Source of the DNA: a virus
Virus record (IMG/VR): IMGVR_UViG_3300044642_000074
Coordinates: 1-64,000 of that record
DNA: 64,000 nucleotides
Strand: one strand, 5' to 3'
Each line of letters opens with the position of its first letter. Position 1 is the stretch's first letter. Both the position numbers and the translations under genes were made by a program. The notes under the pieces are model-generated. The model was not told the DNA's origin and did no database searches. It saw nothing but the letters and a program-made list of their open reading frames with translations. Of the stretch, positions 34,804 to 56,600 are shown piece after piece.

Positions 34804-35459
34804 GAAATATCCTTTCAAGAATCCGTACCCAGGTAAAGGCGGTAAGGCAAGATGCTTTACTGACTGACCGGGTAATCTATACGTTTGTCCTCAAGCATGC
34901 CAAATGGCTAATGAAGCGTGAGGATGCGAAGAACCGTTTGCTTGGGTTTTCCGGAGTGGTTCAGACTATGGACTTTGTGGAACTGATTGAGGTAGATAAG
35001 GTAGAAGCATGTTGTACAGGTTTAAGTTCTGATTGTAAGATCAAACGTACGAAGGAAAAGATGCCTGTATTTATGCAGGGATACTACGGTCCGTTAATCC
35101 GTACTGTAGCTAGTCTTGATGGATCAGAAGAACTTCAACCTACCAATCCTAATTCTTACTTGGCTATGAGCCGCAGTAAGAACTTTAAGTATAACAAAGC
35201 TAAATACTTCTGGTACCTCGATGACTATTTATACTTTCCAAACCTTGACTGGGATGCTGTACGTATAGAAGGAATCTTTGAAGATGATATTTCAAGATTT
35301 ACTTGTGAAGAGGATAACTGCAAGGTTCGTTCAGACGAAAGTTTTAACGTTCCTGACTATCTACATGGTGAAATAGAATCACAAGTATTTAGAGACTTAG
35401 CAGGTATGTACCAGCTTCCTACGGATATGCCGAACGATAAACAAAATGCTCTTAGGTAA
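34785..35459 (+). CDS. tail ring protein
   Basis: 224 aa; YFWYLDDYLYFPN...IEGIFEDD; crAss tail-module synteny. Confidence 0.65.
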   Translation: MARPTIGNILSRIRTQVKAVRQDALLTDRVIYTFVLKHAKWLMKREDAKNRLLGFSGVVQTMDFVELIEVDKVEACCTGLSSDCKIKRTKEKMPVFMQGYYGPLIRTVASLDGSEELQPTNPNSYLAMSRSKNFKYNKAKYFWYLDDYLYFPNLDWDAVRIEGIFEDDISRFTCEEDNCKVRSDESFNVPDYLHGEIESQVFRDLAGMYQLPTDMPNDKQNALR

Positions 35460-36328
35460 TGAAGACAGAACTTCAATATAGAACTTTTGATCAGCTCTTG
35501 GATGAAGTCTCTGCAGACTTTACCACATATAGTATTGAGGGCATGATCGAACCTGGTCAGTTGATCAAGGTTGCTCAGCGTGTAAACTATGATCTGGGTC
35601 TGCGTATTCATGGTACCAAAGAAAAAGTACTGGATATAGAAAAGTCAAAGACTAAACTTCCGGATGATTTTTATGTGCTAAACTACGCATACCTGTGCGG
35701 AAGATATACGGTGTCTAGTCCTGTTATGGCTGGACGTGAAACAGAAAATGTCATACTTAATAAAGATCTCTGCAGAAAGTGCGGCAAACCTGATCCTACT
35801 TGTAGCTGTGAAGCTACTTATACTGTAGAGTGCAATACTGGTCAAAAAGTATTTGTACAGGTTGTAGAAAAACGTAAGTATGAAACTCGTACTTATGACA
35901 CGTTTGAACCTATTCGTATTTCCACATCTACTGGAAAAATAGATGCTACAGACGATAGGGGAGTAAGAGCAGGGTACATTAAGAATGGTTTTATTTATAC
36001 CAACCTAACTGAAGGAAGAATCTTTATTTCTTACCAGGGGTCATTAGAAGATGACCATGGTAATCTTTTGGTACTGGATCATCCTATGATTAACGAGTAC
36101 TATGAATATGCTTTGAAGCAGAGAATATTGGAGAACCTATTTATTGCTGGTGAAGAAGTAAGCCAGAAGATGCAGCTTATAGAGCAGCGTCTTAGAGGTG
36201 CTCGTAATAATGCTCTAAGCATAGTGAACACCCCGGATTTTGCAGAAATGTACAAGCTGTGGCAGACTAATAGAAAGGCCATGTATAGCAAATACTATGA
36301 TATGTTTAAATCAACCGAGGGGTTCTAG
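35459..36328 (+). CDS. tail tubular/ring protein (P22 gp4-like position)
   Basis: KLPDDFY, GFIYTN...ISYQG, YYEYALK motifs; Cys-rich insert CRKCGKPDPTCSC. Confidence 0.65.
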   Translation: MKTELQYRTFDQLLDEVSADFTTYSIEGMIEPGQLIKVAQRVNYDLGLRIHGTKEKVLDIEKSKTKLPDDFYVLNYAYLCGRYTVSSPVMAGRETENVILNKDLCRKCGKPDPTCSCEATYTVECNTGQKVFVQVVEKRKYETRTYDTFEPIRISTSTGKIDATDDRGVRAGYIKNGFIYTNLTEGRIFISYQGSLEDDHGNLLVLDHPMINEYYEYALKQRILENLFIAGEEVSQKMQLIEQRLRGARNNALSIVNTPDFAEMYKLWQTNRKAMYSKYYDMFKSTEGF

Positions 36329-36331: not shown

Positions 36332-36691
36332 ATGAGAATAAAAACCACTATAAAACTTCCGACCTACAGCTGTGATCTCGTAATAAGCGTTGTTGAAAGC
36401 GTAGCCGTAGAAGCAGAGAGACTTTATAAGAAGCATAAGATAACTGAACCGTTTGGAGCTGAGGCAGAAGGAGCTCTTGTAATGATAGGTATGGAAAGAT
36501 ACTACTTGTTGTTTCACAAGGACTTTCTTACTCATAATACTATAGCTCATGAAATATTTCACGCAGCTGTTAGAATAACAGAAGATCGTGACGTGACAGA
36601 TGAAGAAGCTCAGGCTTGGGTCGCTGGATATCTTAGTGCAGTAGTATATAAATTTTTAGAAAAGAAGAAGCTAGAGATAAAACATGGCTGA
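36332..36691 (+). CDS. small zincin-like metallopeptidase
   Basis: TIAHEIFH...DEEAQAW (HExxH plus downstream Glu). Confidence 0.7.
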   Translation: MRIKTTIKLPTYSCDLVISVVESVAVEAERLYKKHKITEPFGAEAEGALVMIGMERYYLLFHKDFLTHNTIAHEIFHAAVRITEDRDVTDEEAQAWVAGYLSAVVYKFLEKKKLEIKHG

Positions 36692-39600
36692 GCAAAGACA
36701 AAATAATCCCGGAGCTGTTACCAATACTTTTTCAAAAGGTATGGTAAAAGATTTCAATGATACCTTTGTTGGTGAAGGTCTGTGGACTCATGCCCGTAAC
36801 GCAGTTAATAATTCCCATGATGGTCAGCTGGGTGTTATAGGAAACGAACCTGCTAACCTGCATTGTGTCACACTTCCTTATGATCTCATAGGTGTTATTC
36901 ATTTAAGAGATGACCAGTGGGCAGTATATACTACAAATGATGTAGACTCTGAGATTGGTGTTTTTGATGAGAGCCAGTGTACATACACTAAGAAGGTTAA
37001 CGATCGTTGCCTCAACTTTAGACGTACAAACTTAATTACCGGCATAAGCCGTAGAAGGTTTGATTGTGAGCGTCCTGTTTACTGGGCAGATGGTAGAAAC
37101 CCAGACAGATTTATGGATCTGGATAACCCCCCGTTTAAGTTTACTGAATCTATACAAAACGGGTGTGTTACCAAAACTTATACTAACCAGCTGGATTGTG
37201 AAAAGATCCGCCTGGCTTCTTTGGTTACTGCTCCATGTATAGTCCTAGAAAAAGGAAAGGGAGCTGGTACTTTACCAAATGGATCTTACCAGGTTTGCCT
37301 GGCCTACACAATTAACCAGGTTAAGATAACTGACTATATGGGACTTTCAGAAGTTCAGTCAGTTTTTCATCATGATAATGTAAAGTCATCTTTAGAAGTT
37401 AAGATTACACAAGTTGACCAGAACTTTGACGAGTTTGAACTGGTTATTCTGGCTCAGATAAATGGAGAGACTATTGCCCGCAGAATCGGGTACTATTCTA
37501 CAAACCAGGGTACTATCTACATAGATACTCTTAGCAATGAAAGTCCTACCGTACCGATCAACCAGGTTGTTGTACGTACAGAACCTATAGAAAGAAGTGA
37601 TACCATGTACCAGGTAAATGACTACGCGTTGCGTGTAGGTGTTTACACTAAGTACAAGTTTAACTATCAGCTTCAGGCTAATAATATCCGCAGTAGCTGG
37701 GTAGCTGTAGAATATCCTGCAGAATACTACAAGAAAGGCGGAAACAATACTGGCTACATGAGAGATGAGCAGTATGCGTTTTTTATCCGTTGGGTGTATA
37801 ACACAGGAGAGAGATCTGAATCTTATCATATTCCAGGTCGTAGTGCTTTACCTACTGAAAAAGATATTGTGGTAAATGCAGATGCCTATGAAGCTGCTAA
37901 CGGAGTTACCGTACAGCGTTGGCAGGTGTATAACACTGCTACGATAGAAGGTAGAACTGCAACTTTGCTTGCAGACGGGGGAAGAGTTATTGGTACTGGT
38001 AGAATGGGTTATTGGGAGTCAACTGAAAAGTATCCTGATGATCGTCCGGATATTTGGGGCAACCTTTGCGGTCAACCTATTCGTCATCATAAGTTTCCTG
38101 ATGAAACTTGTGATACTGCTGCTACTAACCGTGTGTTAGATACATTTAGTCAGAGCGGATCTAAGATTGTTATTCTTGGTGTACAGTTTGAAAACATAAC
38201 ACACCCTCTGGATAATAACGGAAATCCTATTACCTCTATAGTAGGATATGAAATACTTAGAGGTTCCCGCCAGGGAAATAAAACTGTTATAGGAAAGGGT
38301 CTCTTAAATAACATGAGAACCTTTAAATTGCCTGAAGATACTACCAATGAAAGGTTGTTTCAGAACTATCCTTTTAATGACCTTCGTGCAGACTCTTACT
38401 TGACAACTGAATTTCAGAGTGGGACTAACGGATCTCCTGATGTAAAGTCATCTAAGATGACAGGATATAAGAAGAACATCTTTTCTTTTCATAGTCCTGA
38501 AACTACATTTAGCCAACCATTTGTAAATGCTACAGAGTTAAAAGTATATCAGCAGCTTAGCGGTACTGCTACTGGACGTTTTATTATTCCGCATAAGCAT
38601 CCTAAGTTTAAACTACCTACTAACTTTGCAGATACTATATCTGACGTATTAGGTGTAGTTCAACAGATAGCAGACATTACAAGTTTGATTGCCGGAGCTG
38701 CTCCGACTATTAATCTTCAAGGTACCTCTGATCTTCCTTTTACACAGAGTCTAATTACTCCACATAGACAAGAGTCTTTATCTGGTATATTTGCCGGGGT
38801 GACTAGTGGATGGGTCGGAACTACCGGTGCACCTGGTGCTGATACTGCAGCATCTTCAAGAAGATCTATTGCAAACACAGCTATTACCGTGGCAAACGGT
38901 ATAGTGATGGTAACGTTGGCAGCATTTAAAGCTAATGTTACTTCTGAGCAAGTATTCAGATTAATTCTTGCTTTAGTACCTTATAGACAATACGCTGCTC
39001 AATATGTGTCTCATGGTTTTTATAACCAGGCAGTTAATCAACCTTTAGATTTCAGACGTCGTTTTGTTACCAATACAAGTTATGTAGGGGCTGACGTAGC
39101 TACGTTTGGTTCATCTTATCAAATCTACAATCTTAACAGAAACCGTTTTGTGGCTGTAGAGATACCTCAAGCTACAGAATTAAATCCTCCTACAGTTGTA
39201 GATAACAGCCGTTTTATCATTAGTGAAAGAAACGCTGAGCTAAACAAAGACCTAACAAGTACAATATCTAGTTTGTACGGAGCTTTAAAGATTCCTTTAG
39301 ATGCTCAGTACGGACAGTTGGAAAGCATTAAGCAGATACCAATATCTTCCTGTGTTTTTAATACAGTAGCAAACACTACCAGCAAGTTTATTACTCCTGT
39401 TTTATTTGGAGGAGACATTTATATTAACAGGTTTACTGAGAAGAACAATATGTTGTTCTTTAATACCTGGCTGATGGGAGAACCTAACGGTGCAGAGCTG
39501 GACTATACTTTATATTTCAGCATGCCGTATTCAAGATTCTGGGTAAACAATACAGATCTTAACGGTGGCTTGTTTGAAGGAGCTTCTAATTTCAGGGTTC

Positions 39601-42227
39601 TGGACGCTAGAGAGTCAAGACTATTTTCAATATCAAAAGGTTACTTCTACTTGTTTAACTCAGGAGTACGTGACTTTTTTGTAGAGAGTGACGTTAACAT
39701 AGCATACCGTGATTGGGATGACCAGCTCGGCAGAAGACACTACGACCCCTATGAAATTGCAGATCTTAACTTACTGATGAGATCTGATGTAATAAAAGAA
39801 AGTAACATATACAAGTATGATTACTCTTTAAGTATATCTAAGCTTTTCAACTCTCAGATTACCTGGGGTAACATGCTTCCTAGGGACTATGATCCTAAGA
39901 AAGCCGAGACATGTTATGTGTATTATCCTAATAGGGTAGTCTACTCTTTGCCTCAGCAGGATGACAGTCGTAAAGACAGTTGGAGAATATATCTTGCCAA
40001 TAACTATAAGACAATGGGTGGTAGAGTTACTGCCATCAAACCAGTAAATAAGACTGGGGCATTGTTTATGATGGCTTTTCAAAGTCCACTCCAGTTTATG
40101 GGAGTAGAGGAACTAAAGCTTGACGCAACTGGTGCAAAGATTACTATAGGTGACGGTGCTTTATTTTCAGGTCCGCAACAGCTACAGGCTATTGTAAACT
40201 CTGATGAAAGCTATGAATACGGATCTTGCCAAAACAGGTTTGCTACCGTTGGTTGCACACATGGGATATTCTGGGTCAGCCAGAACCAGGGTAAAGTATT
40301 TCAGTACCAGGGAGGTTTAAAGGAAATCTCTAGAGACGGAATGAAATGGTGGTTTGCAAACTATCTTCCTAGTGAACTTCTTAAATTATATCCTAACTAT
40401 CCTTTGTATGATAATCCTGTTGCAGGTATTGGAGTACAGATGATTTATGATAATACAAATGAGATAATCTATATTACTAAGAAAGACTATAGACCAAAGA
40501 GAAAAGACTTGTTATATGATCAGGGTGGCTTTTATTATGAGGGCCCAGGGTCAACAACAATTAATACATGCCCTCCGGGTTATACCCTACAGGGGAATAC
40601 CTGTGTAGCTAATACTGCAACGTGTCCTCCAGGTCATCAGTTGATCAACGGAGTATGTACCAAAACTGAAACGATAGATCCAATTCAGTCTGGTCAGGTA
40701 GTAGAAGTATCTAGAACACCATTTGAGGTTTACGGTAATCAAGGTACAAGAGTATACAGTGCCGCTACTGTTGGTTCTACTTCTACTCTTTTAAATACAA
40801 GCAATCCATTTTGGATACGTCAAGTTAGTCCGGCAAACTGGAACTCACTTACTGCAGATCAGAAACAAGCGTTTGATCTTAACAATGGACCGGTAAACCG
40901 TATCTCTATATGGGGGCGTACACTATCCGGATCTACTGTACTAAATAACTATAACCACAGCGGTGCTGATCTAAATCCTGTTAGTCAATGGATTGGCTTC
41001 GATGTTTGTATAAATATCACAACAACTAAGACATACTATGTAGCTATTGCTGCAGACAATGATTACAGGTTTTCTTTGGACGGAAACCTGATCTTAAGTG
41101 ACACTGGTGGTACTACTGCTACTTTTAACTTCCTTCATATCTACCCTGTAACTATTACAGCTGGTAGTCATATACTTCGTTTGGAAGGGAAGAACAACGG
41201 TCAGAAAGCAGGATTTGGTTGTGAGATTTTTGACCTAGATAACAGACCAACTGGTACCAGTGTGGTAGATTTCTTAAATGCTCAGACGAGCTACGATAAT
41301 TTGATTGTAGTCTTTACAACCAGAAACGTAACACAGTTTTCTTCTAACCTGTACACCTGTCCTGTTGGATATGGTTTAGCTAACCCTACCTGTACAGAAC
41401 CTGTATGTCAAAGAATTACTACAGCTGCTCCTGTGTTTGATACAAAGCAGCCTACTGTAGTTACAGTAAAAAATAAGATCTACTGCAACTTTGATAAAGG
41501 TGAATGTTGGGAAAATGCTAGCTGGACTATTTCTTACGATCCTAAGACACAGACCTGGATATCATTTCATGATTGGATTCCAAGCTTCCTGATTCCTGGT
41601 AAGGCTCACTTCATGAGCGTTAACATGAACTCTATATGGAAGCATAACATTCGTTGTGATAAGTACACTAACTTCTATGGTATAGACTATCCGTTTGAGG
41701 TAGAGTTTGTATCAGCTACCGGTCAGGTAGTTAATTCTATGAGAAACATAGAGTACTTAATGGAAGCATATAAGATGCACAATGACTGCCGTGATAAGTT
41801 TCATGTACTAGATGCAAACTTTGATCAGGCTATTATACATAATTCAGAACAAATATCCGGTCTTCTTGAACTTGAACTGAAAAGCAAGACTAATCCTGTA
41901 GCTATGTTGAGCTATCCTCAGGTCCGTACTCAGTCTATTGGAATAAACTATTCTAAGGAAGAGAATAAGTACAGGTTTAATCAGTTCTGGGATATCACGC
42001 GTAACCGCGGAGAGTTCCAGGGAGTGAATGTTCCGATGTTTAACACAGAACCAAACGGATATAAGTTTCAAATAAACCCTACTTATGTGAACTATAATAA
42101 ATCTCCACTGGAGCGTAAGAAGTTCAGACATAACGTAAACAAGGTATTCTTAAGAAAATTAGTAAGTAATGATACCAAGTATCTATTTAAGATATCTAAC
42201 CAAAAGATTCTACAAAGTCCTAGATAA
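36684..42227 (+). CDS. tail stabilisation / muzzle protein (P22 gp10-like)
   Basis: 1847 aa; N-terminal NTFSKGMVKD...HARNAVN, YMRDEQYAFFIRW, WTISYDP...WISFHDW motifs characteristic of crAss muzzle proteins. Confidence 0.85.
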   Translation: MAEQRQNNPGAVTNTFSKGMVKDFNDTFVGEGLWTHARNAVNNSHDGQLGVIGNEPANLHCVTLPYDLIGVIHLRDDQWAVYTTNDVDSEIGVFDESQCTYTKKVNDRCLNFRRTNLITGISRRRFDCERPVYWADGRNPDRFMDLDNPPFKFTESIQNGCVTKTYTNQLDCEKIRLASLVTAPCIVLEKGKGAGTLPNGSYQVCLAYTINQVKITDYMGLSEVQSVFHHDNVKSSLEVKITQVDQNFDEFELVILAQINGETIARRIGYYSTNQGTIYIDTLSNESPTVPINQVVVRTEPIERSDTMYQVNDYALRVGVYTKYKFNYQLQANNIRSSWVAVEYPAEYYKKGGNNTGYMRDEQYAFFIRWVYNTGERSESYHIPGRSALPTEKDIVVNADAYEAANGVTVQRWQVYNTATIEGRTATLLADGGRVIGTGRMGYWESTEKYPDDRPDIWGNLCGQPIRHHKFPDETCDTAATNRVLDTFSQSGSKIVILGVQFENITHPLDNNGNPITSIVGYEILRGSRQGNKTVIGKGLLNNMRTFKLPEDTTNERLFQNYPFNDLRADSYLTTEFQSGTNGSPDVKSSKMTGYKKNIFSFHSPETTFSQPFVNATELKVYQQLSGTATGRFIIPHKHPKFKLPTNFADTISDVLGVVQQIADITSLIAGAAPTINLQGTSDLPFTQSLITPHRQESLSGIFAGVTSGWVGTTGAPGADTAASSRRSIANTAITVANGIVMVTLAAFKANVTSEQVFRLILALVPYRQYAAQYVSHGFYNQAVNQPLDFRRRFVTNTSYVGADVATFGSSYQIYNLNRNRFVAVEIPQATELNPPTVVDNSRFIISERNAELNKDLTSTISSLYGALKIPLDAQYGQLESIKQIPISSCVFNTVANTTSKFITPVLFGGDIYINRFTEKNNMLFFNTWLMGEPNGAELDYTLYFSMPYSRFWVNNTDLNGGLFEGASNFRVLDARESRLFSISKGYFYLFNSGVRDFFVESDVNIAYRDWDDQLGRRHYDPYEIADLNLLMRSDVIKESNIYKYDYSLSISKLFNSQITWGNMLPRDYDPKKAETCYVYYPNRVVYSLPQQDDSRKDSWRIYLANNYKTMGGRVTAIKPVNKTGALFMMAFQSPLQFMGVEELKLDATGAKITIGDGALFSGPQQLQAIVNSDESYEYGSCQNRFATVGCTHGIFWVSQNQGKVFQYQGGLKEISRDGMKWWFANYLPSELLKLYPNYPLYDNPVAGIGVQMIYDNTNEIIYITKKDYRPKRKDLLYDQGGFYYEGPGSTTINTCPPGYTLQGNTCVANTATCPPGHQLINGVCTKTETIDPIQSGQVVEVSRTPFEVYGNQGTRVYSAATVGSTSTLLNTSNPFWIRQVSPANWNSLTADQKQAFDLNNGPVNRISIWGRTLSGSTVLNNYNHSGADLNPVSQWIGFDVCINITTTKTYYVAIAADNDYRFSLDGNLILSDTGGTTATFNFLHIYPVTITAGSHILRLEGKNNGQKAGFGCEIFDLDNRPTGTSVVDFLNAQTSYDNLIVVFTTRNVTQFSSNLYTCPVGYGLANPTCTEPVCQRITTAAPVFDTKQPTVVTVKNKIYCNFDKGECWENASWTISYDPKTQTWISFHDWIPSFLIPGKAHFMSVNMNSIWKHNIRCDKYTNFYGIDYPFEVEFVSATGQVVNSMRNIEYLMEAYKMHNDCRDKFHVLDANFDQAIIHNSEQISGLLELELKSKTNPVAMLSYPQVRTQSIGINYSKEENKYRFNQFWDITRNRGEFQGVNVPMFNTEPNGYKFQINPTYVNYNKSPLERKKFRHNVNKVFLRKLVSNDTKYLFKISNQKILQSPR

Positions 42228-45200
42228 TGAATAAGCTGCTCCAACATATTATGAATGCGGGGGATGTATCAGATAAGTTTCTGGTGCATTTCAATAATGG
42301 AGTACCTCTTACTAAGAAACCTTTAGTAAAAGCTCAGCAGGGTATTCAAAACGTTACCGTAGATGGTAAACGTATGAGGACAGATTCTCCTGAATATAAA
42401 AATCTTTACAGTAAAGGCATAGGCCGTTGGATGAAAAAAGATGCTTCAGGAAACTGGGTACCTGGTACTGCCAATGATTCTGGGTCTGAGTTTGTATCTT
42501 CTCCCAAGACATTAGAAGAAGTTGTTGTTAAGAGTACAGTTAAACCTAACTCACTTGGAGCATACTCTTCCAAATTCTATAGAGAAAATCCTTTTGAAAC
42601 CTTCTTTAAAGATAGGTATGGTCAGATAAAAGATGAATTTACTTCAGAGCCTATATGGGCTCAACGTGCAGTAGGTGGATGGGATAGAGAAAGTAGACAG
42701 AAGAATATACGTGAGCAGATTCAACAAGAGTATGATAAGAAGTATAGTGATTACTTAACCCAAAGATTACTTCAAAGAAATCCTCAAGGAGACCAGTACA
42801 GGGATGATTGGTTATCTAATAAGAACTTTACTAACAGGGAACTTAGTATACTTACTGCTAATGAAAACCTGCCTCAGCCAAACTTATATTCTCAGGGTGC
42901 TCAGGGTCTCTACAATACTGCTGATATGTTGGCTCTTGGAAAGCTTCCAGAGCTTGCTGTACCTGGTATAGCTAAATCTGAAGTTGCTCAGTATAACAGT
43001 CCTTTACTTACTTTTCAACCGCTTTCTATTCCAGCTAAGATGGTTCAGTCTTTTTACACAGACGACTATACATTTAGAGACGCTGTGAGAGGTACTCCTA
43101 ATAAAGCAAGTCTTACGGAAGATATAATTACTGATCCTTTAACATGGTGGACACTTGGTGGTAAATCATTACTTACTGCGGCTGGTAAAGCCAGTGGTAT
43201 AAATACTGCAAGGTTTTTTCCTGAAGTAAGTAACTTTTCTAAACTATCTAAGCCACCAAAAACACAGTTTGCTCAAGATGCTGATGACTTTTTAAAAGCT
43301 GGTAAAGAAGTAGTAGATCCTGAAACAGGTGTATCTAAATTTGTTTATGAGCTGGATGATGTATCTACTGCTTCTGATAATCCTTTTGTTTGGTATCCTG
43401 ATAGTCAAGCAGGTAAAAAACCTTATACAGGTGGTGGCGTGGAGCTTACATTTGATGACTTAGTAGATGTATCTGATATTCCTGTTCTTAATAACAAGAT
43501 CAGTCCTATTGGTACTAGTGGATCAAAGACCTTTGGAAGTACCTTATCTAATATTTACGATAAAGGTAAGAGCAAGCTTATGAAGCTTTTTGCTAATACA
43601 AACCAATGGGATGTTTCTAAACCACTTGGTACTTTGCAAGATTATAAAAGTTGGGGTAACAATATTCATAAAGAACTTGATTATGTAGATCCTGCTCTTA
43701 TCCGTGATGCTCACAAAAAAGCTATAAAATATTTTAAATCTACCGGACAGTGGGGGAATATGCAAAACTCACCTAGAGAGTTCGGTCTTTTTATAAGGGC
43801 AGAACTAGCTGATAAAATACCATCTTTTGCAAATCCTGTAGTAGTTGATCCTGCAACGGGAGCTAGATTCAATTATGGACAAGAGGCTTGGCATCCGAGT
43901 TTATACCCAGATAATCAGCAAGCCATGTATTTTAGCACGGTTAGAAACGAGGCTGAATATTACAAAGATGCTCCATTTGCTGCACAAGAGGCTCAACCGC
44001 TTTCTTGGGGGTATGATGCAGAAAAATTTACTCCGCAAGAAGCTAATCTTATAACAGGGTATGCACATGGTTATGATAATCCTCTTAATAATGTGTTTAG
44101 AGCTAGATCCACAGTAGGAGCAAAAAAATTTTATGAAACTAAAGGTAATGAGTTAAATACAGCTGTACAGAAGAATAAGTTTCCTGTAGCTACTCAAGTA
44201 AGAAGAGGTGTTGATAACTATCCTGTAGAGATTTTAGATCCAGTTACCTATAAGCCAACTGGTGTTTTTAAGAGACGTTCTGAATTAGGTGTAGGAGATG
44301 TATTTAAAGATGAAGGTTTTATGTCCACTAGTCTTAATACTAACCATACATGGGGAACAGCCGATGCTTCAGAACTTATTGATATACCCGGAGGCGGAGT
44401 TCAGTCTTATGCTTTTCCTAACGCTATGTCAAACAGCCCTTATTTTCCCGAGGCTGAGGCTATATTACCAAAAGGATTAATACGTAAAGTAGAAGAAGTA
44501 AGAGAACCCGTAAGCGGTGGTAGTTATGGTTTTCCTAATAATGCCAGAATCAGAACTAGTATATTAAATCCTTATAGTGTTTTACTTCCAGTAGTTGGTG
44601 GTGCGGCTGCAATACAAGGTCAGAAAAAACAAGGTGGTCCTATTGTAGACCCGCGTGGTCAGTGGGCTCATCCTGGTAAAGTTACTCGTATACCTGGATC
44701 AGATATTACTATGCAGGGAGTAAACTACCCGGTGTATGCCAAACCTAACAAAGGCAAAGGTGGTATGATGTATCCAGGGGGGAATTACTCTTTCCCCAAA
44801 GCTGATTATGTAGATGAGTATCCTATGATGCAAAGAGGAGGTCAATATATAGACTCTGTGTTTAACGCTAACCGAAATCTTAACTGGGTAAAACGACTAT
44901 ATGATAAAAACACACCTAGTATCCAGATTCCTGGAGAGCCTTACCCGTCTACCCACTACATGGAATATGCCGATAACCGCGTATATCCTCAAGTAGTACA
45001 GATGCCAGATGGTAAGTTGAAACACCTGGGTAAGAACGCTTACGACTATGCTGACTCTACTAAAACATACATTAAGTTTCCAACAGAAGCTGATGCTAAA
45101 TGGTTTAGTCAAAACTATAAGAAGGGTAAAGGCGTATTAGGTAACAGGCAATTAGGAGGTCAGTCTGCAGGGAAAAGTCCTTACTTTTTTATGAACATTA

Positions 45201-46135
45201 ATAATGATATGGAAGAAAGATTTCGTGCCCTTGATTATGTTAAAGATGAATATAACAAGGGTATGGATTTTCATACTAAGTGGCTTAACTCACCTATGTA
45301 CAAGAGTATGATTAACGCGTCTGATCCTGCCAATGCAAAACAAATTACTGACCAACGTAAAAAACGTCTTTCTGCTGTGACTATGAAATACGTTGATACT
45401 GCATATGGCCCAGATATTAGGACTGGAGCTACAGCTGATAATCTAGGAAATATAAAGGTATACCCAATAGGTGTTGGTCATAACAGCGTTGGTACTCATG
45501 AAATATCTCATGTAACAGACAATGGTCCAGGGCTCGATCTTATACCTGCTAAAGATCAAATTAACATTTTAGAAAAAGCTTATGATAAAGTAAACTTACC
45601 AAAGTATGAAGCTGATAAAGAGTATGTTGATTATATTACTAAACCAACAGAGACAAGAGCTAGATTAAATCAAATACGTCAGCAAGCTTCTGAAAATAAA
45701 TTATATGACCCTTTTACTCAAAAAGTAAACCCAGCTATATATAATAAACTTAAAAATTTTAAGTTTGATAAGTCAGTAGACTGGAGTCCTCTTCAACAGT
45801 TAAAAGAAGCTTATAGTGATCAACAGATTATGGAACTGCTTAATAGTGTTTCTAAAGTAAATACTAATAACGATATGCAAAACATGATGGCCAGTGGTGG
45901 ACAGCATGGCGGTCTTGACCGTTGGTTTGCAGAGAAATGGGTAGATGTAAAGACAGGAAAAGCATGTGGTAGACAAGAAGGTGAAAGCAGAGCTTACCCG
46001 GCATGTCGTCCTTCTAGACGAGTATCATCCCAGACACCAAAGACTTCTTCAGAAATGAGTCCTGCTGAGAAGGCTAAGTTTAAAAGGACTAAGACATCCT
46101 CAGAACGTATAAACTATAATCATAAAAGAAATTAA
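42227..46135 (+). CDS. polyvalent virion cargo protein with ADP-ribosyltransferase and zincin domains
   Basis: ART R-STS-ExE motifs (VRRG 44201, FMSTS 44324, EAE 44450); HEISH at 45497 with PTETRARL; position after the muzzle gene. Confidence 0.8.
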   Translation: MNKLLQHIMNAGDVSDKFLVHFNNGVPLTKKPLVKAQQGIQNVTVDGKRMRTDSPEYKNLYSKGIGRWMKKDASGNWVPGTANDSGSEFVSSPKTLEEVVVKSTVKPNSLGAYSSKFYRENPFETFFKDRYGQIKDEFTSEPIWAQRAVGGWDRESRQKNIREQIQQEYDKKYSDYLTQRLLQRNPQGDQYRDDWLSNKNFTNRELSILTANENLPQPNLYSQGAQGLYNTADMLALGKLPELAVPGIAKSEVAQYNSPLLTFQPLSIPAKMVQSFYTDDYTFRDAVRGTPNKASLTEDIITDPLTWWTLGGKSLLTAAGKASGINTARFFPEVSNFSKLSKPPKTQFAQDADDFLKAGKEVVDPETGVSKFVYELDDVSTASDNPFVWYPDSQAGKKPYTGGGVELTFDDLVDVSDIPVLNNKISPIGTSGSKTFGSTLSNIYDKGKSKLMKLFANTNQWDVSKPLGTLQDYKSWGNNIHKELDYVDPALIRDAHKKAIKYFKSTGQWGNMQNSPREFGLFIRAELADKIPSFANPVVVDPATGARFNYGQEAWHPSLYPDNQQAMYFSTVRNEAEYYKDAPFAAQEAQPLSWGYDAEKFTPQEANLITGYAHGYDNPLNNVFRARSTVGAKKFYETKGNELNTAVQKNKFPVATQVRRGVDNYPVEILDPVTYKPTGVFKRRSELGVGDVFKDEGFMSTSLNTNHTWGTADASELIDIPGGGVQSYAFPNAMSNSPYFPEAEAILPKGLIRKVEEVREPVSGGSYGFPNNARIRTSILNPYSVLLPVVGGAAAIQGQKKQGGPIVDPRGQWAHPGKVTRIPGSDITMQGVNYPVYAKPNKGKGGMMYPGGNYSFPKADYVDEYPMMQRGGQYIDSVFNANRNLNWVKRLYDKNTPSIQIPGEPYPSTHYMEYADNRVYPQVVQMPDGKLKHLGKNAYDYADSTKTYIKFPTEADAKWFSQNYKKGKGVLGNRQLGGQSAGKSPYFFMNINNDMEERFRALDYVKDEYNKGMDFHTKWLNSPMYKSMINASDPANAKQITDQRKKRLSAVTMKYVDTAYGPDIRTGATADNLGNIKVYPIGVGHNSVGTHEISHVTDNGPGLDLIPAKDQINILEKAYDKVNLPKYEADKEYVDYITKPTETRARLNQIRQQASENKLYDPFTQKVNPAIYNKLKNFKFDKSVDWSPLQQLKEAYSDQQIMELLNSVSKVNTNNDMQNMMASGGQHGGLDRWFAEKWVDVKTGKACGRQEGESRAYPACRPSRRVSSQTPKTSSEMSPAEKAKFKRTKTSSERINYNHKRN

Positions 46136-46146
46136 TTATATATCCT

Positions 46147-47958
46147 ATGGCTAACAAACCTAATAATCCTGCCCTTTGGTCTAAAGCTAAGTCTTTAGCT
46201 AAACAGAAATTTGATGTCTATCCCTCAGCCTATGCTAACGGCTGGGCAGCTAAGTGGTACAAAGGTAAAGGAGGTACTTGGCGTAAAGCTGAGTACGGAA
46301 TGGAAGTACCGTTTATGAATAACGGTGGAGAAAAAATGCCACCCGAGATTGCTCGTGCACGTTTTGCTGCAGCAGGTAATCTTGATAAGATGGGTGATTA
46401 TGGTTATGCTTATGGTGGAGATACACCTAAATATATGCAACAAGGTGGACAACAAGATCAGATTATGATGGTTATTCAGCAGTTTGCTCAAATGAATCAA
46501 GTTGATCCCCAAGAAGTTATACAGCAACTTCAACAGTTGCCTGCTGAACAACAACAAGCAGCTATTCAAAAGATGGCAGAAACAATACAACAAGCTTCTC
46601 AGCAGCAACCTGATATGGTGCAAGCTGCTATGGCTTATGGTGGATATACTACTGGTGTATTTGCTGATGGTGGAGAACCTGATGGGTCTATGGCCCTTGG
46701 TCAGATAGATGCTGCAGTAGATAAACTTCAGAAACTTCGTCAGTTTATTCAACCTGAGTCTGATCTAGAACCATGGGTAAGTTCTAAACTTACTAAGATG
46801 GATGATTATGCAGATGCCGTGTCTGACTACATGATGTATAACCCAGAAGCCCAGGGAGAGATGATGGAAGAGCCTCAGGGACTTCCTATGCAACAAATGA
46901 AAGAAGGTGGTATTCCTACCCGTTACAAGAACATGGGCTTTTCTAAAGTTGGGGCTAAGAAAGAATCTACCCGTCCTGGTAAAAAGTGGATGGTGCTAGC
47001 CAAGAAAGGTAGTGACTATAAAGTAGTACACGGTGGATACGATGGTATGAAGGACTTCTCTCAGCATGGATCTGAGAAACGTAAAGATCGTTTCTGGGAC
47101 CGTATGGGTGGTAAGAACTCAGCTAAAGCCAAGGATCCGTTTAGTCCTTTGTACTGGCATAAAAGATTTGGTACCTGGCAAGATGGTGGAGAGATATATG
47201 GTATGGGTGGATATATACCAGAATATGGCATGGGTGGCATGCCTTGTTATGAATGTGGTGGTATGTTTGCAGAAGGCGGAATGTATGATTGCCCTGATCA
47301 GGAGAAAGACCCTGTAACAGGTAAGTGTAAAGCTGAGGTTGTTCGTGGTAGAGAAGCAAATGCTGCTAACAAAGCAGCTAGTGCAGACATGAACGCATGG
47401 GCTAAGCAAGTTGCTGCTATGGATAAAGAAGTTGCTAAACAGAATGCTGCTCAGTATGCTGGACAAAAAAGTTTTGATTATGACTGGATGCAATCTCCTG
47501 TAGATAAAGCAGAGAAGAAAGCAGCTATTGCTCAATACAAACAATTTATTCAGCAGAACCCTAATGTATTTGTAGCAGATGATTCATCTGGGTACAATCC
47601 AGAACAGAAGTATATCATTGCTTCTAAGCTTAAGCAAAAATCAAGCACTCCAATGGGATCTAAAGCATTCCAGCAAAAGTTTAACCAGGATGCACGTTTG
47701 CTAGATCTTGGACGTATACAGTCTGACATTGTTCCTTTAATGGGTGGCTGGAGTGGAATTCAGAACTGGCTGTTTGGTAATAAAAAATTCGGTGGCTACA
47801 TAGGACAAGACGGAAAGCGTCACATATCTAAGACACCTACCTGGTCTGGAAATACCGGTTATCAAGAAGGTGGTCCTGTTCTAGGGGATGTAATGGATGT
47901 AACACCTGAACAGCTTGAAGTTCTTCGTGCTCAAGGCTATGACTTTGAAATAATCTAA
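46147..47958 (+). CDS. modular virion cargo protein rich in x-x-x-G-G motifs
   Basis: 603 aa of short modules separated by MNNGG, YAYGG, MQQGG, FADGG, MKEGG, WQDGG, FAEGG, KKFGG, YQEGG. Confidence 0.75.
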   Translation: MANKPNNPALWSKAKSLAKQKFDVYPSAYANGWAAKWYKGKGGTWRKAEYGMEVPFMNNGGEKMPPEIARARFAAAGNLDKMGDYGYAYGGDTPKYMQQGGQQDQIMMVIQQFAQMNQVDPQEVIQQLQQLPAEQQQAAIQKMAETIQQASQQQPDMVQAAMAYGGYTTGVFADGGEPDGSMALGQIDAAVDKLQKLRQFIQPESDLEPWVSSKLTKMDDYADAVSDYMMYNPEAQGEMMEEPQGLPMQQMKEGGIPTRYKNMGFSKVGAKKESTRPGKKWMVLAKKGSDYKVVHGGYDGMKDFSQHGSEKRKDRFWDRMGGKNSAKAKDPFSPLYWHKRFGTWQDGGEIYGMGGYIPEYGMGGMPCYECGGMFAEGGMYDCPDQEKDPVTGKCKAEVVRGREANAANKAASADMNAWAKQVAAMDKEVAKQNAAQYAGQKSFDYDWMQSPVDKAEKKAAIAQYKQFIQQNPNVFVADDSSGYNPEQKYIIASKLKQKSSTPMGSKAFQQKFNQDARLLDLGRIQSDIVPLMGGWSGIQNWLFGNKKFGGYIGQDGKRHISKTPTWSGNTGYQEGGPVLGDVMDVTPEQLEVLRAQGYDFEII

Positions 47959-47961
47959 TCT

Positions 47962-50900
47962 ATGAAAATACGTATTACAAAAAAAGGGCTACCTAAAGCT
48001 CAGTGGTTAAACAGTCAACCTGGAGTTCAGTTACAGCTGCCTGCCAGTTCGCAACCTAACTTTGCATGGATGACATCTCAGCAGATGCAGAATTATCTTA
48101 TGCCTGCTGCTCCACAAACGTTACCTGTTAACAACACAAGCCTTCCTCCTGATGTTATTATTCCTAGGAACTTGTATCCAGCTATGACAGATGCTGAGAT
48201 GGCTCCTCCTGAAGTTCTTGATCAACAAAACCAAGTAAGTCAACCTGTTGATATAGCAGCTGCTTTAGGTATTGGACCAAAGAGAGAAGCTTGGGAAATA
48301 GAGCAGCAGAAAAAATATGATACCGATCCAAACTATGCATTGAAGTTTGATGATAGTGTTGGCTTTGGTATGCTTCAGGGGTATACAGATCCTAAGCGTC
48401 TTACTAGTAGGCAAGATCTTAAGAAGTACGTAAACTTCTTTAACAAAAAGTACGGTACGAAACTAAAGATGCCTACTTACAATCCAGGCTTAGCTAAGGC
48501 TGCTAACGCTGTTAGTACAGGTATTGGAGCTTTGGCCTTAGCTGGTAATGCAGTAGATTATTTAGAAGCTAATAAAAAAGGAAAAGAGTGGGAACGTTTC
48601 TTCCGTCAGCGTATGATGGAACCTGCTCCCAATACTGAGTTTGAAGGTATTGAGAATATTAACTCCGGAAGAATGTTTGAAAACATGCTACCTAAACCTA
48701 ATCAAGGACGTTTTGATTATGGTGGTGTAGCTAACAATATGTTTGATTCTATGAAAATACGTATTACATCTGCTCCTCAGTCCATGGAGTATGGAGGTCA
48801 GTCTAACTACGGACTTGATCTTGGTAGAAGAAAAATCTATACAGACATGCCTGAGTCCCAGGCTGAGTCAGTTACTAGTTCTGTAGGAGCTGTACCTAGA
48901 GCTATGGCGAATATTGAAGCTGAAGGCGGAGAAACTGTCTTTGGAGACATGGACGGTGATGGAGCTATGGAACATATGAACATAGTTGGTAAACGTCACC
49001 ATCAAGGTGGTGTACCATTAAATGTACCTGAAGGAAGTTTTATCTTTTCAGATACAGCTAAGATGAGAATCAAAGATCCTGCTGTTCTTGCTATGTTTGG
49101 TAAGACTATTACAAAAGGAAATAAAGGATATACTCCGGCTCAAATTGCTAAGCAGTATAACATAAATAAGTATAAAGCAGTAATGGAAGATCCTAATGCG
49201 GATCATGTTGCCAAAGCTACTGCACAGTTAATGGTAAACAATTACCGTAAGAAACTTGGTGGCCTTGCTCTGATACAAGAAGAGATGAAAGGATTTCCTC
49301 AAGGTATACCTCAAGTAGCTGAAGCTGCTACAGACAAACCTATGATGGCAAAGTTTGGCGGATACCTTCCGGAATATCAAACAGCAGGACAAGCTCCTCC
49401 TGTTATACCTCAAGCTTTTAGGATAACTTCTTTGACTCCTGAGGTACAAGCTGCGTTAGCTGAATTTGCTAGCCGTCAAAATCCTGGGGGTGGTCAAAAT
49501 ACAACAGTGTCTGCGTCTAATACCAGATCTCCTCAGGCTTTAGCTGATATGAGTGACCCAGAGTTCCAGAAGTTTATGGATCTGGTTAACAAGTATGATA
49601 ATAAGCAGAGAAAAGATGCTAGTTATATAAATTCTATGACAGATGCAGACGCTAAAGAGTTTGCCCGTCTTGCTACCAAGTTTGGTTTTAAAAGAACAGA
49701 CAAAGATGGTAAACAGCAGTATAGAGTTGTACAAGGATCTACTCCAGATTATAACTTTACAATAAAAGGTAAAGACGGAAAACCTCAAAAGATTGGATTT
49801 TTTGGTGGCTACCGTCCGCAGCAATACGAGCGTAGAGTTGTAGAAGATGTTCTTGGAGAAGACTCTGTAAAGAATATGAGTGAGCTAGATATCCGTAAAG
49901 CTTACTTTAAAGAACTTGGTGTTGATGTAAGTGGTATGAGTGATGATCAGTTAAAGGATTCTAAGAAACTTTATACTGATGCAAACTTTTTTCAAAATGT
50001 CTTCTATCCTAAGTTTACTCAAAGGTTTGGTAAAGATGATTACCGTAGCCAGCTTGGTGATGACTTGTTGATTGGTGCTGAGCACTATGATGCATATCGT
50101 AAAAAAGAGAAATCTCAGGATACTACCGTTATAGGTTATATCTGTAAGGGTGTGTCTGCAAATGGTGCTCCTATTGTAGAAAGTTCTAGCTTTAGAGATG
50201 AAGCTGCTTTGGCTGCAGCTGGTGCGTCTAAGTCATACCAAGTAGCTATCTTAAACTGTGGCAAAGACACTGATATAGATATAGATATTATTCCTGGAAA
50301 GAAGAAGCAACCTACTGACTTCATGACTCCTGATAAGCTTACGTTAATGGCTGCTGCAGCTATTCCACCAAAAGGATATTTTCCTTTTGTATCGGATATG
50401 CCGTTTAGACCGGGTCAACTAGCTTTAGAAGACTGGTTAAGCCAGGTTCAGAATATTCAACAGGGGTATAACACTTCAGCAAATATGTTGGGTACATACA
50501 ACCCTGGTACAGCTATGGCGTCTAACTTATCTTTCTTAGCAGGTCAGGCTGGTGATCAGACTGCCCAGGCTATTTCACAGGTAGGCAGCCGTAACGTTGA
50601 CAGATTCAACCAATTTGCAAACACTGAGACTCAGCGTAGACAGAATGTTGATGCATACAATACATCAGCCAGAGACAAACGCTGGGATGGGTACACTGTA
50701 ACCAAACAAAACCTAGATAATGCTCGTAGGAGATATCTTAATACAGTCACTAAAGCCACTAATAATATGTGGGCTAACCGTATGTACTTAGATATGATTA
50801 ATTCTGTTAATCCTTTCTTTAATGTAGATCCTAGATCTGGTCTTTCTTATTTTACAAATGATGGGTATACTACAAAAGATCTTGGAAGAAGTTCTGCCGG

Positions 50901-51162
50901 TGCAGGTGGAGGAGGTATAGATTGGTCTGAAATAAGCAGAGGCTTTCAAGATGCCAAAGGCAAGTTTCCTGGTCTTACTGAAGAGCAGTATCTCAGAATG
51001 ACCAATCAAAGAACTACATCTGTTGATACAAACAGAGACGGTCTACCTGACAGGACAAGTACTGCAAACATGGGACCCATGAGCTACATGTCTCAGATGC
51101 TTCCTATGTATATGGCAATGTCTAACATTGCTAGATCAGCTAATCCTTTTACCGGGCAATAA
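47962..51162 (+). CDS. crAss-like cargo/ejection protein
   Basis: ANIEAEGGE...GKRHHQGGVPL...FIFSD core typical of crAss cargo proteins; helical C-terminus. Confidence 0.75.
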   Translation: MKIRITKKGLPKAQWLNSQPGVQLQLPASSQPNFAWMTSQQMQNYLMPAAPQTLPVNNTSLPPDVIIPRNLYPAMTDAEMAPPEVLDQQNQVSQPVDIAAALGIGPKREAWEIEQQKKYDTDPNYALKFDDSVGFGMLQGYTDPKRLTSRQDLKKYVNFFNKKYGTKLKMPTYNPGLAKAANAVSTGIGALALAGNAVDYLEANKKGKEWERFFRQRMMEPAPNTEFEGIENINSGRMFENMLPKPNQGRFDYGGVANNMFDSMKIRITSAPQSMEYGGQSNYGLDLGRRKIYTDMPESQAESVTSSVGAVPRAMANIEAEGGETVFGDMDGDGAMEHMNIVGKRHHQGGVPLNVPEGSFIFSDTAKMRIKDPAVLAMFGKTITKGNKGYTPAQIAKQYNINKYKAVMEDPNADHVAKATAQLMVNNYRKKLGGLALIQEEMKGFPQGIPQVAEAATDKPMMAKFGGYLPEYQTAGQAPPVIPQAFRITSLTPEVQAALAEFASRQNPGGGQNTTVSASNTRSPQALADMSDPEFQKFMDLVNKYDNKQRKDASYINSMTDADAKEFARLATKFGFKRTDKDGKQQYRVVQGSTPDYNFTIKGKDGKPQKIGFFGGYRPQQYERRVVEDVLGEDSVKNMSELDIRKAYFKELGVDVSGMSDDQLKDSKKLYTDANFFQNVFYPKFTQRFGKDDYRSQLGDDLLIGAEHYDAYRKKEKSQDTTVIGYICKGVSANGAPIVESSSFRDEAALAAAGASKSYQVAILNCGKDTDIDIDIIPGKKKQPTDFMTPDKLTLMAAAAIPPKGYFPFVSDMPFRPGQLALEDWLSQVQNIQQGYNTSANMLGTYNPGTAMASNLSFLAGQAGDQTAQAISQVGSRNVDRFNQFANTETQRRQNVDAYNTSARDKRWDGYTVTKQNLDNARRRYLNTVTKATNNMWANRMYLDMINSVNPFFNVDPRSGLSYFTNDGYTTKDLGRSSAGAGGGGIDWSEISRGFQDAKGKFPGLTEEQYLRMTNQRTTSVDTNRDGLPDRTSTANMGPMSYMSQMLPMYMAMSNIARSANPFTGQ

Positions 51163-53614: not shown

Positions 53615-56600
53615 ATGATAGAAAACCTTTTTGAACAAGGCTTAGATAACGTTGACGTTCCTGAAAACTTGGAAGAAACTCCAGGTTTAGAACTTGGTAA
53701 TCTAGATCAGCCTGAAAGTCCTGAGCAAAGTCCATTAGGAACACCTGCTCCTGTTCAATCTACACCTTCGGTTGATCCTCCTACAAAGAAGTATAAGTCT
53801 TATGAGGCTGCTTTGGATGCTGCAGAACTTGGGGCTAAAAAGTTTTTTCCTTTTGCTGATACTGACTTCTTAAGATCCAAGACTGTTTCTGGTGATCGTG
53901 CCAGAAAGTATAACGATATGGAATATGGCTACCGTTATGGTGTAGACATGGATGACTTTTACGGGGAGATGGAAAGTCCGCTAACTACTTTTGCTAAAGG
54001 AGCAGGTAGATTTGTATTAGGTGTAGGAACCAAAGTAGGACAAGGTGCAGGTTTTCTTTTAGGTCTTGCAAACCCTCAGAATTGGGATGAAGATATTATT
54101 ACAAAAGCTTCCGATAACGGTATTACATATTTATTTGACCAGCTGGACGAAAAGACCAAGCAAGATTGGTTACCTACTTTTCAAGAAGCAGCTGATAGAG
54201 ACAAAGGTTTTTGGAATAAGTTTTTTACAGATGGGGATTTTTGGATGACTGATGCTGTAGACGGTGCTGCATTTCTAGTATCTGCATGGGTACCGGGTAT
54301 GGCATTGTCTAAGTTAGGTCTAGGAACAAAGTTAGCTCAAAGTCTTTCAGGTCTTAGACTTGGTGTTGGCGGAGCTGAAGCTGCTGTAGAAGGAGCAGCC
54401 ATGACACAGAACTATCTTACTAAAGCTAACAGTATCTTCAAAACAGGTATTGATAAGTTTAATGCTTGGGCTTTAGCAACAAGTTCTGAAGCTATGTTTG
54501 AAGCTGCAGAAGCAAGAAGGGGTATTATAGACTCATTGACTTATGATGAGTTTGGACGTTTGAAAATTAATCCTGTTACAGGAACTCCATATTCAGAAGA
54601 TGAGAAAAGAAAGATTGCCGGTGGAGCTGCTCAGAATAGTTTCTTACTTAATGCTGCTTTGCTTGCTGGTACAAATGCTTTAGAACTTAGATGGATAGGC
54701 TCTATGTTTGGAGCTGGAGAAAGAGCTGCTGTTAGTGGAATAACCGGTGCAACTAATCTTACAGACCGTATGGTTGCAGAACAGGCAGTAGGTAAGTTTA
54801 GTAAGTTTTTATCATCTGGTAAGGGTGCTTTTTTAAGTGGAGCTACACAAGGTATTCTTGCAGAAGGTTTTGTAGAAGAGAATGCTCAGCTTGCTATACA
54901 GCGTGTAAATCAGCAGTATGGTATGCAAGGTAAGGTTGCTGAATTTGGTAACCTTGGAGACTTTATAACTCAGTTTAAGAATCAAACCTTCAATGCTTTA
55001 ATCGGCAAGGACCCAGAGGCTGCTACTAGTATAGGTATTGGTGGTATTCTTGGTACGCTAGGAGGTGGTATATCTTCTACAATACAACAGCGTAAAGATA
55101 GAACTCTTACAGAACAGGTAATAAATGCATATAACTTAGCCCAGGATAACTGGCTTAAGTTTGGTAACATATATAAAACTCAAGATGTATTTACTGTAGA
55201 TGAACAGGGTACTACTGTAAAAACACAGCAGGTAGTCTTTGATCAAAACGGGGAACCTGTAGTTGATCAAGAAAAACTGTCGGGTGCTTTAACAGGTTAT
55301 ACTGCAGTAACAGCTGCACTAGATGAAGCTTCAAAACTACAACCAGGTTTTCAAAGAGATATACTTAGAGACACTGCTTTTGCAGATTTTGTAACAGCTC
55401 ATATTAATGCTGGTATAGAAAACACTGTTATAGATAAACTTAACAGTCTTCAAAAAGCTTCACCTCAGGATCTTGCAAAGCTTGGATTTACTGTTGGTGA
55501 AAACGCAGAGCAGCAGATCAATAGGTATAAGAACCTAGCATCTGCTATTATCAATCAGAACAAACTGATTAACTCTGATATCTTGGTTGACAATAGCCAG
55601 GAAGATAAAGCCCGTAAAAATTATTTATTAAAGCTTGCTGCTGACCAGGCTGTATATAAGAGCTTGGTAAATGAGAACCAGACAGCCCTAACCGAGATAC
55701 AGAATCAGTTAGTTACTTCTGAGAATTCTTCATTGTCAGATGGTTTAGTAGAACAGCTTAATGAGCTTGCTCAAAGGATCAAGTCTCAGGAAGAGATACT
55801 TCAGGAAATGGGTACTAGTCCTGACACTGGTATTCGTAAGCAGGTAGCTAATCAAGTACTTGATGAGCTGAAGCAAAACTACGAACAGTTAGAAAAAGAT
55901 AATACTACAACTATTCAGAGTCTTAAAAAAGACAAGGATGGTTTTTATGAATATGAAAAACCAGGCCGTAATATACCTGGTGTATATGATCAGTACAAGA
56001 AGAAAGTAAGATTAAAAGGTGAACTGCAAAACCAGATTAAGTTAAATGGCCTTGAGTGGTCTAAGTATGCTGATACTAAAAACGGTAAGCAGAACTTTTT
56101 ACAGATGTTCAAAGAGGACATTGTTGATCCTTTAACTCAAGCCGCAGCTGAAGCTCAGGACGCACAGTCTCAACTCGGAAAAACAATTACTCTTACTGGC
56201 ACAGATGCTAACGGTAATCCTAAAGCAATAGATATAACCGTAGGTAAACTGTACGTTGGTAAGTTTACCAAGTCAGAAAGATACAGAGGCAAGCAGATTG
56301 TATCTGTATTTAATAATGATAAGATTAAGATATTAGATATATCAGAGGATGGCTCTACCGTTACTATAAAGGCTAATGGAGAGGTTATGGAAATGTCAGC
56401 ACAAGAGCTGGCAGATATTGCTATACCAGAAAACTGGAGAGCGTTTGATTCTTTAACTGATGATCAGAAACTTTATTTGACCCTGCGTAACCAAGTAATT
56501 GAGTACAGGGTTTTAGAACGAGATGCATCAGGTAAACCTATAAAACAAGCTAATGGTAAGTACAAGACACGCGTTGTAAAAGGACGTGTGGCTATGAATA

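Follow-up and report, generated by a model that had tools for sequence, protein, structure and literature searches.

The window analysed here covers the initial 64 kb of a virus record of 114,808 bp (IMG/VR IMGVR_UViG_3300044642_000074), whose completeness CheckV estimates at 88%. The source virus is a crAss-like phage, and the window codes for terminase, portal (3129-5873) and capsid proteins (major capsid protein, 7317-8942), as well as for long fibre genes. Three consecutive plus-strand genes (42227..46135, 46147..47958 and 47962..51162) encode proteins of 1302, 603 and 1066 amino acids (aa), referred to below as cargo proteins 1, 2 and 3, in which a short peptide motif, [M/Y/F/W, sometimes K]-x-x-G-G (the joint motif), recurs. 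Their upstream border is the gene of a muzzle-like tail-tip protein of 1847 aa (36684..42227, +) that matches PHROG virion structural proteins, and they are followed by a 786-aa gene and then by an open reading frame (ORF) of 4603 aa. Judging from their place between the muzzle gene and this giant ORF, the three genes most likely encode proteins that travel in the particle and enter the host by ejection. Upstream of the muzzle gene lie CrAss_Ring_2 and CrAss_Ring_1 (34785-36328, identified by Pfam) and a stand-alone gene (36332..36691, +) that overlaps the muzzle start by 8 nucleotides (nt) and encodes a putative mini-zincin of 119 aa, a candidate processing peptidase.

We gathered 63 related viral loci for comparison. 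Across these relatives a common order is kept (i.e., ring 2, ring 1, the 119-aa gene, muzzle, cargo 1-2-3, the homologue of the 786-aa gene, and the giant ORF), with synteny around the muzzle gene conserved in dozens of loci. A tblastn and megablast comparison with GenBank phages returned no relative of the three cargo genes, the 119-aa protein or the cargo protein 3 central domain; the sole match was one 27-residue module in two cyanophages. The 4603-aa ORF occupies 53615-64000 (+) and runs on to 67426 in the genome, where a 1539-aa ORF comes next; both are presumably virion RNA polymerase-like giants, and neither has a Pfam match or a joint motif.

The original prediction had listed about 20 joint motifs in the three cargo genes, and we recovered all 20 in the genes to which they had been assigned, together with several more. 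More specifically, cargo protein 1 carries the listed KKQGG (aa 800), MQRGG (aa 868), RQLGG (aa 974) and MASGG (aa 1221), as well as WTLGG (aa 308), YTGGG (aa 400), KGKGG (aa 842) and MYPGG (aa 848). Cargo protein 2, which consists of about nine small modules with 12-14 joint motifs, carries MNNGG (aa 57), YAYGG (aa 87), MQQGG (aa 97), MAYGG (aa 162), FADGG (aa 172) and MKEGG (aa 251) in its first half, and WQDGG (aa 344), YGMGG (aa 351 and 360), YECGG (aa 368), FAEGG (aa 374), KKFGG (aa 546) and YQEGG (aa 572) in its second; KGKGG (aa 39) is a further occurrence. In cargo protein 3 there are FDYGG (aa 251), MEYGG (aa 275) and AKFGG (aa 463). Searches of the literature gave no account of a Gly-Gly joint motif for either crAss cargo or polyvalent proteins, and the motif is apparently undescribed so far.

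To measure enrichment, we compared counts of [MFYW]-x-x-G-G with those in composition-preserving shuffles of each protein. The 603-aa protein contains 12 motifs against 1.2 expected (P < 5e-5; none of 20,000 shuffles reached 12), and the 1302-aa protein 5 against 1.0 (P = 0.002), whereas the 1066-aa protein contains 2 against 1.0, which is not significant. Enrichment is therefore strong for the second gene and moderate for the first, but weak for the third. Pooled, the three genes have 6.4 motifs per 1,000 aa, compared with 0.48 for the remaining 107 ORFs of the 114.8-kb genome (Fisher 2e-12). As had been noted, portal and terminase contain none; the muzzle protein has only 2 in 1847 aa, and the motif is absent or almost absent from the 786-aa protein and the giant ORF. 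Likewise, in 24 related loci the motif-rich ORFs are restricted to the 2-4 genes that separate the muzzle gene from the next conserved one. One might still suspect a by-product of sequence rich in Gly, Met, Tyr and Gln, with which the result for the third gene would agree; for genes 1 and 2 this explanation is refuted by the shuffles and by motif columns that are invariant across homologues, and we consider it exceedingly improbable overall.

Cargo protein 2 is the clearest example of the arrangement. Its gene codes, on the plus strand, for the N-half of DUF5872 (46147-46275), a Q-rich helical module (46450-46644), a second helical module (46675-46911), DUF5754 (46912-47190), a helical variable insert (47281-47796) and a conserved C-terminal tail of 27 residues, PVLGDVMDVTPEQLEVLRAQGYDFEII (47875-47955). 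A tandem micro-array (47176..47280, +) packs five motifs (WQDGG, YGMGG twice, YECGG and FAEGG) into 35 residues, without intervening modules and at a pLDDT of 25-31; in homologues, the variable insert has this array as its left border. An AlphaFold2 model of the 603-aa protein, built with 28 homologues, comprises small helical modules and one three-stranded module (DUF5754), separated by coil of pLDDT < 50 at residues 17-65, 85-101, 154-178, 230-255, 345-380 and 546-575. All 12 motifs counted in this protein (12/12) fall in such coil, in agreement with the proposal that the motifs occupy inter-domain linkers. The low pLDDT of the model fits the pattern of insertions and deletions among homologues, low confidence not being proof of disorder.

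Cargo protein 1 is polyvalent. Behind a variable N-terminal part it carries on the plus strand an ADP-ribosyltransferase module (44018-44506; Pfam ADPrib_exo_Tox, 2.2e-9; R at aa 658, STS at aa 700 and ExE at aa 742), a small beta module (44639-44764), a zincin-like module with the sequence HEISH (45158-45901, HEISH at 45497) between RQLGG and MASGG, and the basic C-half of DUF5872 (45902-46132; Pfam DUF5872, 6.4e-12). Its C-terminal modules are bracketed by the motifs at aa 800, 842, 848, 868, 974 and 1221. By analogy with T4 Alt, the ADP-ribosyltransferase module is likely an injected host-modifying enzyme. The two halves of DUF5872 thus stand in reverse order over the border of genes 1 and 2 (45902-46275, +), the C-half ending gene 1 and the N-half starting gene 2; in locus L025 they are part of one ORF, with KEYGG joining them. 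The halves might pair in trans and so link two cargo proteins.

Cargo protein 3 differs from the other two. Its parts, all on the plus strand, are an added N-terminal module (47962-48726) with FDYGG at its end, an ancestral start peptide (48727-48798) with MEYGG at its end, the most conserved central domain (48799-49263), and a long C-terminal part without motif enrichment. The first 18 nt of the gene (47962-47979; ATGAAAATACGTATTACA, MKIRIT) repeat exactly and in frame 789 nt downstream (48751-48768), and in relatives the gene starts at the second copy of ATGAAAATACGTATTACA. The repeat and the starts in relatives therefore indicate that an N-terminal module of 263 residues was added here, or that an internal start was kept. 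A second short tag, [L/M/I]-P-[K/G]-[A/F/Y]-Q, occurs in N-terminal leaders of cargo proteins, often beside Gly-Gly joints, with 23 occurrences in 47 kaa (thousand aa) of cargo and 13 in 92 kaa of other ORFs. An example is LPKAQ at residues 10-14 of cargo protein 3 (47989-48003, +), and the tag is also present in loci L005, L025, L036, L050 and others.

More than 3,700 metagenome relatives of the 603-aa protein were found, with mosaic architectures that include DUF5754, DUF3597, DUF5872, YkuD, CwlK-like and tail-lysozyme domains. In its best 120 homologues, motif density is 16.6 per 1,000 aa. Position -3 of the Gly-Gly pair is M in 27-38% (38% in these 120), Y in 17-18% (17% in the 120), K in 10-12% (12% in the 120) and F in 6% of cases, while W accounts for 6% among the 120. 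An analysis of 662 Gly-Gly sites from 54 cargo proteins showed the information to be confined to -3, -2, -1 and the Gly-Gly pair itself. When 28 homologues were aligned, the Gly-Gly pairs 165/166, 175/176, 254/255 and 575/576 were invariant and four more nearly so, while between the invariant pairs whole modules come and go. The tail PVLGDVMDVTPEQLEVLRAQGYDFEII closes the second cargo protein in most relatives, whatever precedes it. In addition, many cargo genes open with a leader-like peptide of 7-43 residues that ends in the motif (e.g., MKTYKVRIKKSPESMAYGG, MKKWLDKYAEGG and MYYQQGG).

A signal of this regularity could in principle reside in the DNA, with GGTGG-like microhomology driving the shuffling and the peptide a mere translation of it. 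The first Gly codon is indeed GGT in 75% of motifs versus 55% of single glycines, and similarity breakpoints cluster at motifs. However, a quarter of the first and half of the second Gly codons are other synonyms, Gly-Gly pairs elsewhere are nearly as biased (66%), and the strongest additional signal is the amino-acid class at -3, whose members have unrelated codons. Since synonymous Gly codons replace one another at the motif, GGT being only mildly in excess, selection acts on the peptide, and we regard a DNA-level recombination signal as very unlikely.

That the cargo genes encode modular proteins in cargo position, as originally proposed, is supported by how their relatives are built. Of the internal similarity breakpoints in gene 1, 65% adjoined a motif (8% expected), as did 54% in gene 2 (26% expected) and 2% in gene 3 (4% expected); the hits are related sequences, so that significance overstates their independence. 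The claim that motifs sit mostly at module boundaries stands for genes 1 and 2, for which the breakpoints speak, as does the AlphaFold coil for gene 2, but not for gene 3. The expected gain and loss of modules at the motifs was likewise observed, relatives adding, losing, reordering and swapping cassettes exactly there. Cutting the 54 cargo proteins at the motif yielded 511 segments with a median of 42 residues, which form recurrent families of fixed length, including a 25-residue helix (23 occurrences), a 43-residue N-terminal module, the 27-residue C-terminal tail, a 57-residue basic module, DUF5754 and the basic C-half of DUF5872. These families vary in order, in copy number and in whether they occur in the first or the second cargo gene. 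Loci L018, L025, L002 and L016 have genes 1 and 2 as a single fused gene, and in L034 gene 2 is split. The last module of gene 1 has no motif behind it when it ends the gene; in the fused ORF of L025 the same module is followed by KEYGG and then by the first module of gene 2, and in L020 it is followed by KQQGG. The motif appears only after internal copies of this module and is therefore punctuation equivalent to a gene boundary.

Taken together, the first two cargo proteins are strings of self-contained modules of about 25-250 residues on apparently disordered linkers, nearly every linker bearing one joint motif. It is at this joint that modules are copied, lost, rearranged or swapped, and gene fusions and fissions fall there as well. 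Such joints might be nothing but passive flexible hinges. With Gly-Gly ending each small module, a beads-on-a-string chain could thread the narrow portal and tail channel with no need to unfold globally; the bulky residue would do no more than cap the module before it, and the motif would be ubiquitous since recombinants survive only if joined in linkers. The modules are indeed tiny and mostly helical, the motifs at aa 39, 344 and 546 stand directly behind predicted helices, module exchange happens at the joints, and cargo must pass constrictions under 50 Å, as argued in PMC10172136. Yet a hinge needs neither an invariant Gly-Gly nor a bulky residue at exactly -3; the module-free motif arrays and the extreme N-terminal motifs (MYYQQGG) would be left unexplained; and the muzzle, the fibres and the giant ORF, which are multi-domain proteins of the same phage, do not use the motif. 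We consider a purely passive hinge unlikely and place it third among the readings.

Rather, the motif may be a peptide that is recognised by a protein partner, as suggested by its fixed register, the invariant Gly-Gly, its location in linkers, its restriction to cargo and the leaders that end in it. Ranked first, though held only tentatively, is a reading with a zincin-type peptidase as this partner, such as has been predicted for the processing of polyvalent proteins. Either within the capsid or once the cargo has been ejected, the peptidase would cut the cargo strings at or beside the joints and thereby free enzymes such as the ADP-ribosyltransferase as well as small basic modules. Candidates for this role would be the 119-aa protein and the HEISH module.

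To identify proteases that might act at the joints, we searched the 114.8-kb genome (88% complete). An adenain- or Ulp1-like protease, which the original prediction had led us to look for, was not detected, Peptidase_C5 and Peptidase_C48 (clan CE) giving no match at E ≤ 1; nor was there any match to C39 (PF03412), to M23, or to the prohead-protease families of T4, HK97 and ClpP type, namely S77 (PF03420), S78 (PF04586) and ClpP (PF00574). What the genome does encode is two zincin candidates, the 119-aa HExxH...E protein and the HEISH module of cargo protein 1. In the former, HExxH (H73, E74 and H77) and E92, fifteen residues on, are invariant in 17 syntenic homologues, and among 150 representatives of < 50% mutual identity they are conserved at 99% (H73, E74 and H77) and 97% (E92). 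The family comprises at least 936 clusters, all stand-alone and of about 115-125 residues. The AlphaFold model of the 119-aa protein (pLDDT 94.8) has a beta-sheet and two helices, with HExxH plus the downstream Glu on the next helix. Against viral models, Foldseek matched it to small phage proteins labelled PolyVal metallopeptidase, SprT-like, IrrE and metalloprotease (E of 1e-3 to 5e-2), and Pfam SprT-like was found below threshold only (E = 0.047). Against the Protein Data Bank (PDB), the sequence search was empty and Foldseek gave nothing at E ≤ 0.001; VIA-align against solved structures reached a best Z of 5.3 with no clear match, YbeY-like chains scoring a Z of about 4. The 248-residue HEISH module has no Pfam match; a protein-atlas pointer from the HEISH-bearing cargo protein 1 to the polyvalent-protein domain LPD23, with a score of only 0.86, serves as a lead only.

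Several observations weigh against cleavage at the joints, which is itself something that we infer. The tandem motifs are 6-9 residues apart, so that cutting would give tiny peptides; Pro directly follows Gly-Gly at the most conserved (last) joint in about two thirds of homologues; and the KGG of the first module is intrinsic to that module, being kept at the C-terminus of an unrelated cyanophage protein. The structural paper on crAss001 reports no cleavage, and its cargo protein gp45 was modelled as one chain spanning tail and capsid (PMC10172136). The candidate peptidases do not track the motif either: no 119-aa homologue is encoded by one relative whose complete 114-kb genome does carry motif-bearing cargo, the close locus L020 lacks the 119-aa gene at the syntenic spot, the 119-aa family is also found in a different phage type without motif-rich proteins, and the HEISH module occurs in only some relatives. 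The idea of the 119-aa zincin as a dedicated protease for the motif is thus weakened, zincin and motif dissociating both ways across genomes.

The original prediction had framed the motif as a phage analogue of the sites cut by adenovirus and African swine fever virus (ASFV) proteases. Processing of the adenain/ASFV type takes place at (M/I/L)-x-G-G or G-G-x, ASFV pS273R acting on polyproteins at Gly-Gly, and in both systems the precursors are packaged. A hydrophobic residue upstream of Gly-Gly is shared with these sites, Met being the commonest at that position, but here the bulky residue is one position further from Gly-Gly. Membership in this class was not borne out, because no clan-CE peptidase was found in the 88%-complete genome and the register is M-x-x-G-G instead of M-x-G-G. 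Similarly, T4 internal proteins and Alt (with a capsid-targeting sequence) and the phiKZ-type inner-body proteins are injected and processed by prohead proteases, and they include ADP-ribosyltransferase. The present system resembles them in its probable injected ADP-ribosyltransferase and its short leader-like N-terminal peptides, whereas their sites end in Glu and need S77/S80-type proteases; here S77 and S78 were sought and not found. For a double-glycine leader/C39 system, the C39 domain (PF03412) likewise has no match in the genome. Small zincins (SprT-like, PolyVal metallopeptidase and minigluzincins) share with the 119-aa protein the HExxH plus downstream Glu, a size of about 110-120 residues, and the beta-sheet with two helices; unlike them, the 119-aa protein has no significant match to solved structures and is a candidate by sequence and model.

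Closer parallels are offered by polyvalent proteins, for which Iyer, Burroughs, Anand, de Souza and Aravind (2017; PMC5512222) predicted processing by zincin peptidases, citing the cleavage of phage P1 DdrB before packaging. As in those proteins, unrelated effector and small domains are combined in one phage polypeptide that is presumed to be delivered with the DNA, and architectures are mosaic: the ADP-ribosyltransferase, the HEISH module and a DUF5872 half share one ORF of 1302 aa, and DUF5754 and others share the 603-aa ORF. An ADP-ribosyltransferase is likewise present in both cases, and the HEISH module is a candidate for a zincin-like module here. In contrast, the modules here are mostly tiny (25-75 residues) and a candidate peptidase also exists as a separate 119-aa gene. 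The text of PMC5512222 contains neither 'linker' nor 'glycine', so that apparently no joint motif was described there.

Comparison with crAss001 brings in the second-ranked reading, in which the motif is a docking or loading handle and is not cleaved. Multivalent peptides would bind a putative conserved site in the particle and so co-package the cargo, in the manner of encapsulin cargo-loading peptides or the T4 capsid-targeting sequence; the sites postulated are the luminal capsid face, the portal, the ring proteins or another cargo module. The crAss001 cargo genes C1 (gp45) and C2 (gp46) lie directly after the muzzle gene (gp44) and before polymerase-like giants (PMC10172136), as do the cargo genes here, and gp45 is Gly-rich, with 21 Gly-Gly pairs and the motifs FAEGG, FAYGG and KAFGG. 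Two gp45 segments that are ordered by cryo-electron microscopy (cryo-EM) in the crAss001 virion, residues 214-245 and 425-552 (PMC10172136), are each flanked by Gly-Gly motifs: the former, in the tail barrel, by AYGG (207-210) and FAEGG (260-264), and the latter, on the portal, by AFGG (425-428) and FAYGG (559-563). Besides these virion-bound segments, docking would be consistent with the confinement of the motif to cargo-position proteins, with its high copy number and the module-free tandem arrays, which suit avidity, with its fixed register, disordered linkers and occurrence near N-termini, with the tolerance of M, Y, F, W and K at -3, and with the fact that no protease co-varies with the motif. 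On the other hand, the receptor is only postulated, known phage targeting signals are single terminal peptides rather than 10-16 copies, motif enrichment in gp45 is not significant (P = 0.15), and the conserved 27-residue C-terminal tail would be a simpler tag, making it a better candidate than the motif for a single targeting or anchoring peptide. We regard docking without cleavage as possible, and likewise the capsid-targeting tag that the original prediction had named as its alternative.

No significant sequence similarity of the cargo proteins to gp45 or gp46 was detected, BLASTP being not significant, hhalign giving a probability of 12% and no Pfam crAss cargo family matching at E ≤ 0.01. 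A visual impression that the central domain of cargo protein 3 is homologous to the portal-bound domain of gp45 received no support from BLASTP or hhalign. Moreover, crAss001 has two cargo genes versus three here, the motif is far denser here, and in crAss001 no gene lies between ring protein 1 and the muzzle gene, where the 119-aa gene is found in the present genome.

If cleavage does occur, it may belong to a maturation system specific to a large uncultured crAss-like clade, in which cassette polyproteins would be cut at [M/Y/F/W]-x-x-G-G by stand-alone or embedded small zincins and inserted cassettes would be loaded and released as independent effectors; we put this forward as a speculative proposal. 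A five-residue joint motif marks exchangeable modules in more than 3,700 related proteins, and it would give a simple rule for finding injected effectors, such as the ADP-ribosyltransferase described here, in metagenomes. Phages of the crAss-like group rank among the most abundant of known viruses, and the motif is a testable handle on how they load and deliver their large protein cargo. Cutting at the joints, if true, would represent a new polyprotein strategy among tailed phages; joints that act as docking peptides would amount to a loading code for an HK97-fold capsid; and either outcome could be put to use in the laboratory for loading phage particles with foreign proteins.

Finally, Cellulophaga phage phi14:2 (L154), a cultured crAss-like phage, encodes a virion protein, gp081 (60360-62141 of its record), with two HExxH modules (HEFTH and HEFIH), each following x-G-G-[M/P]-VDPP, which makes this phage tractable for testing joint cleavage.

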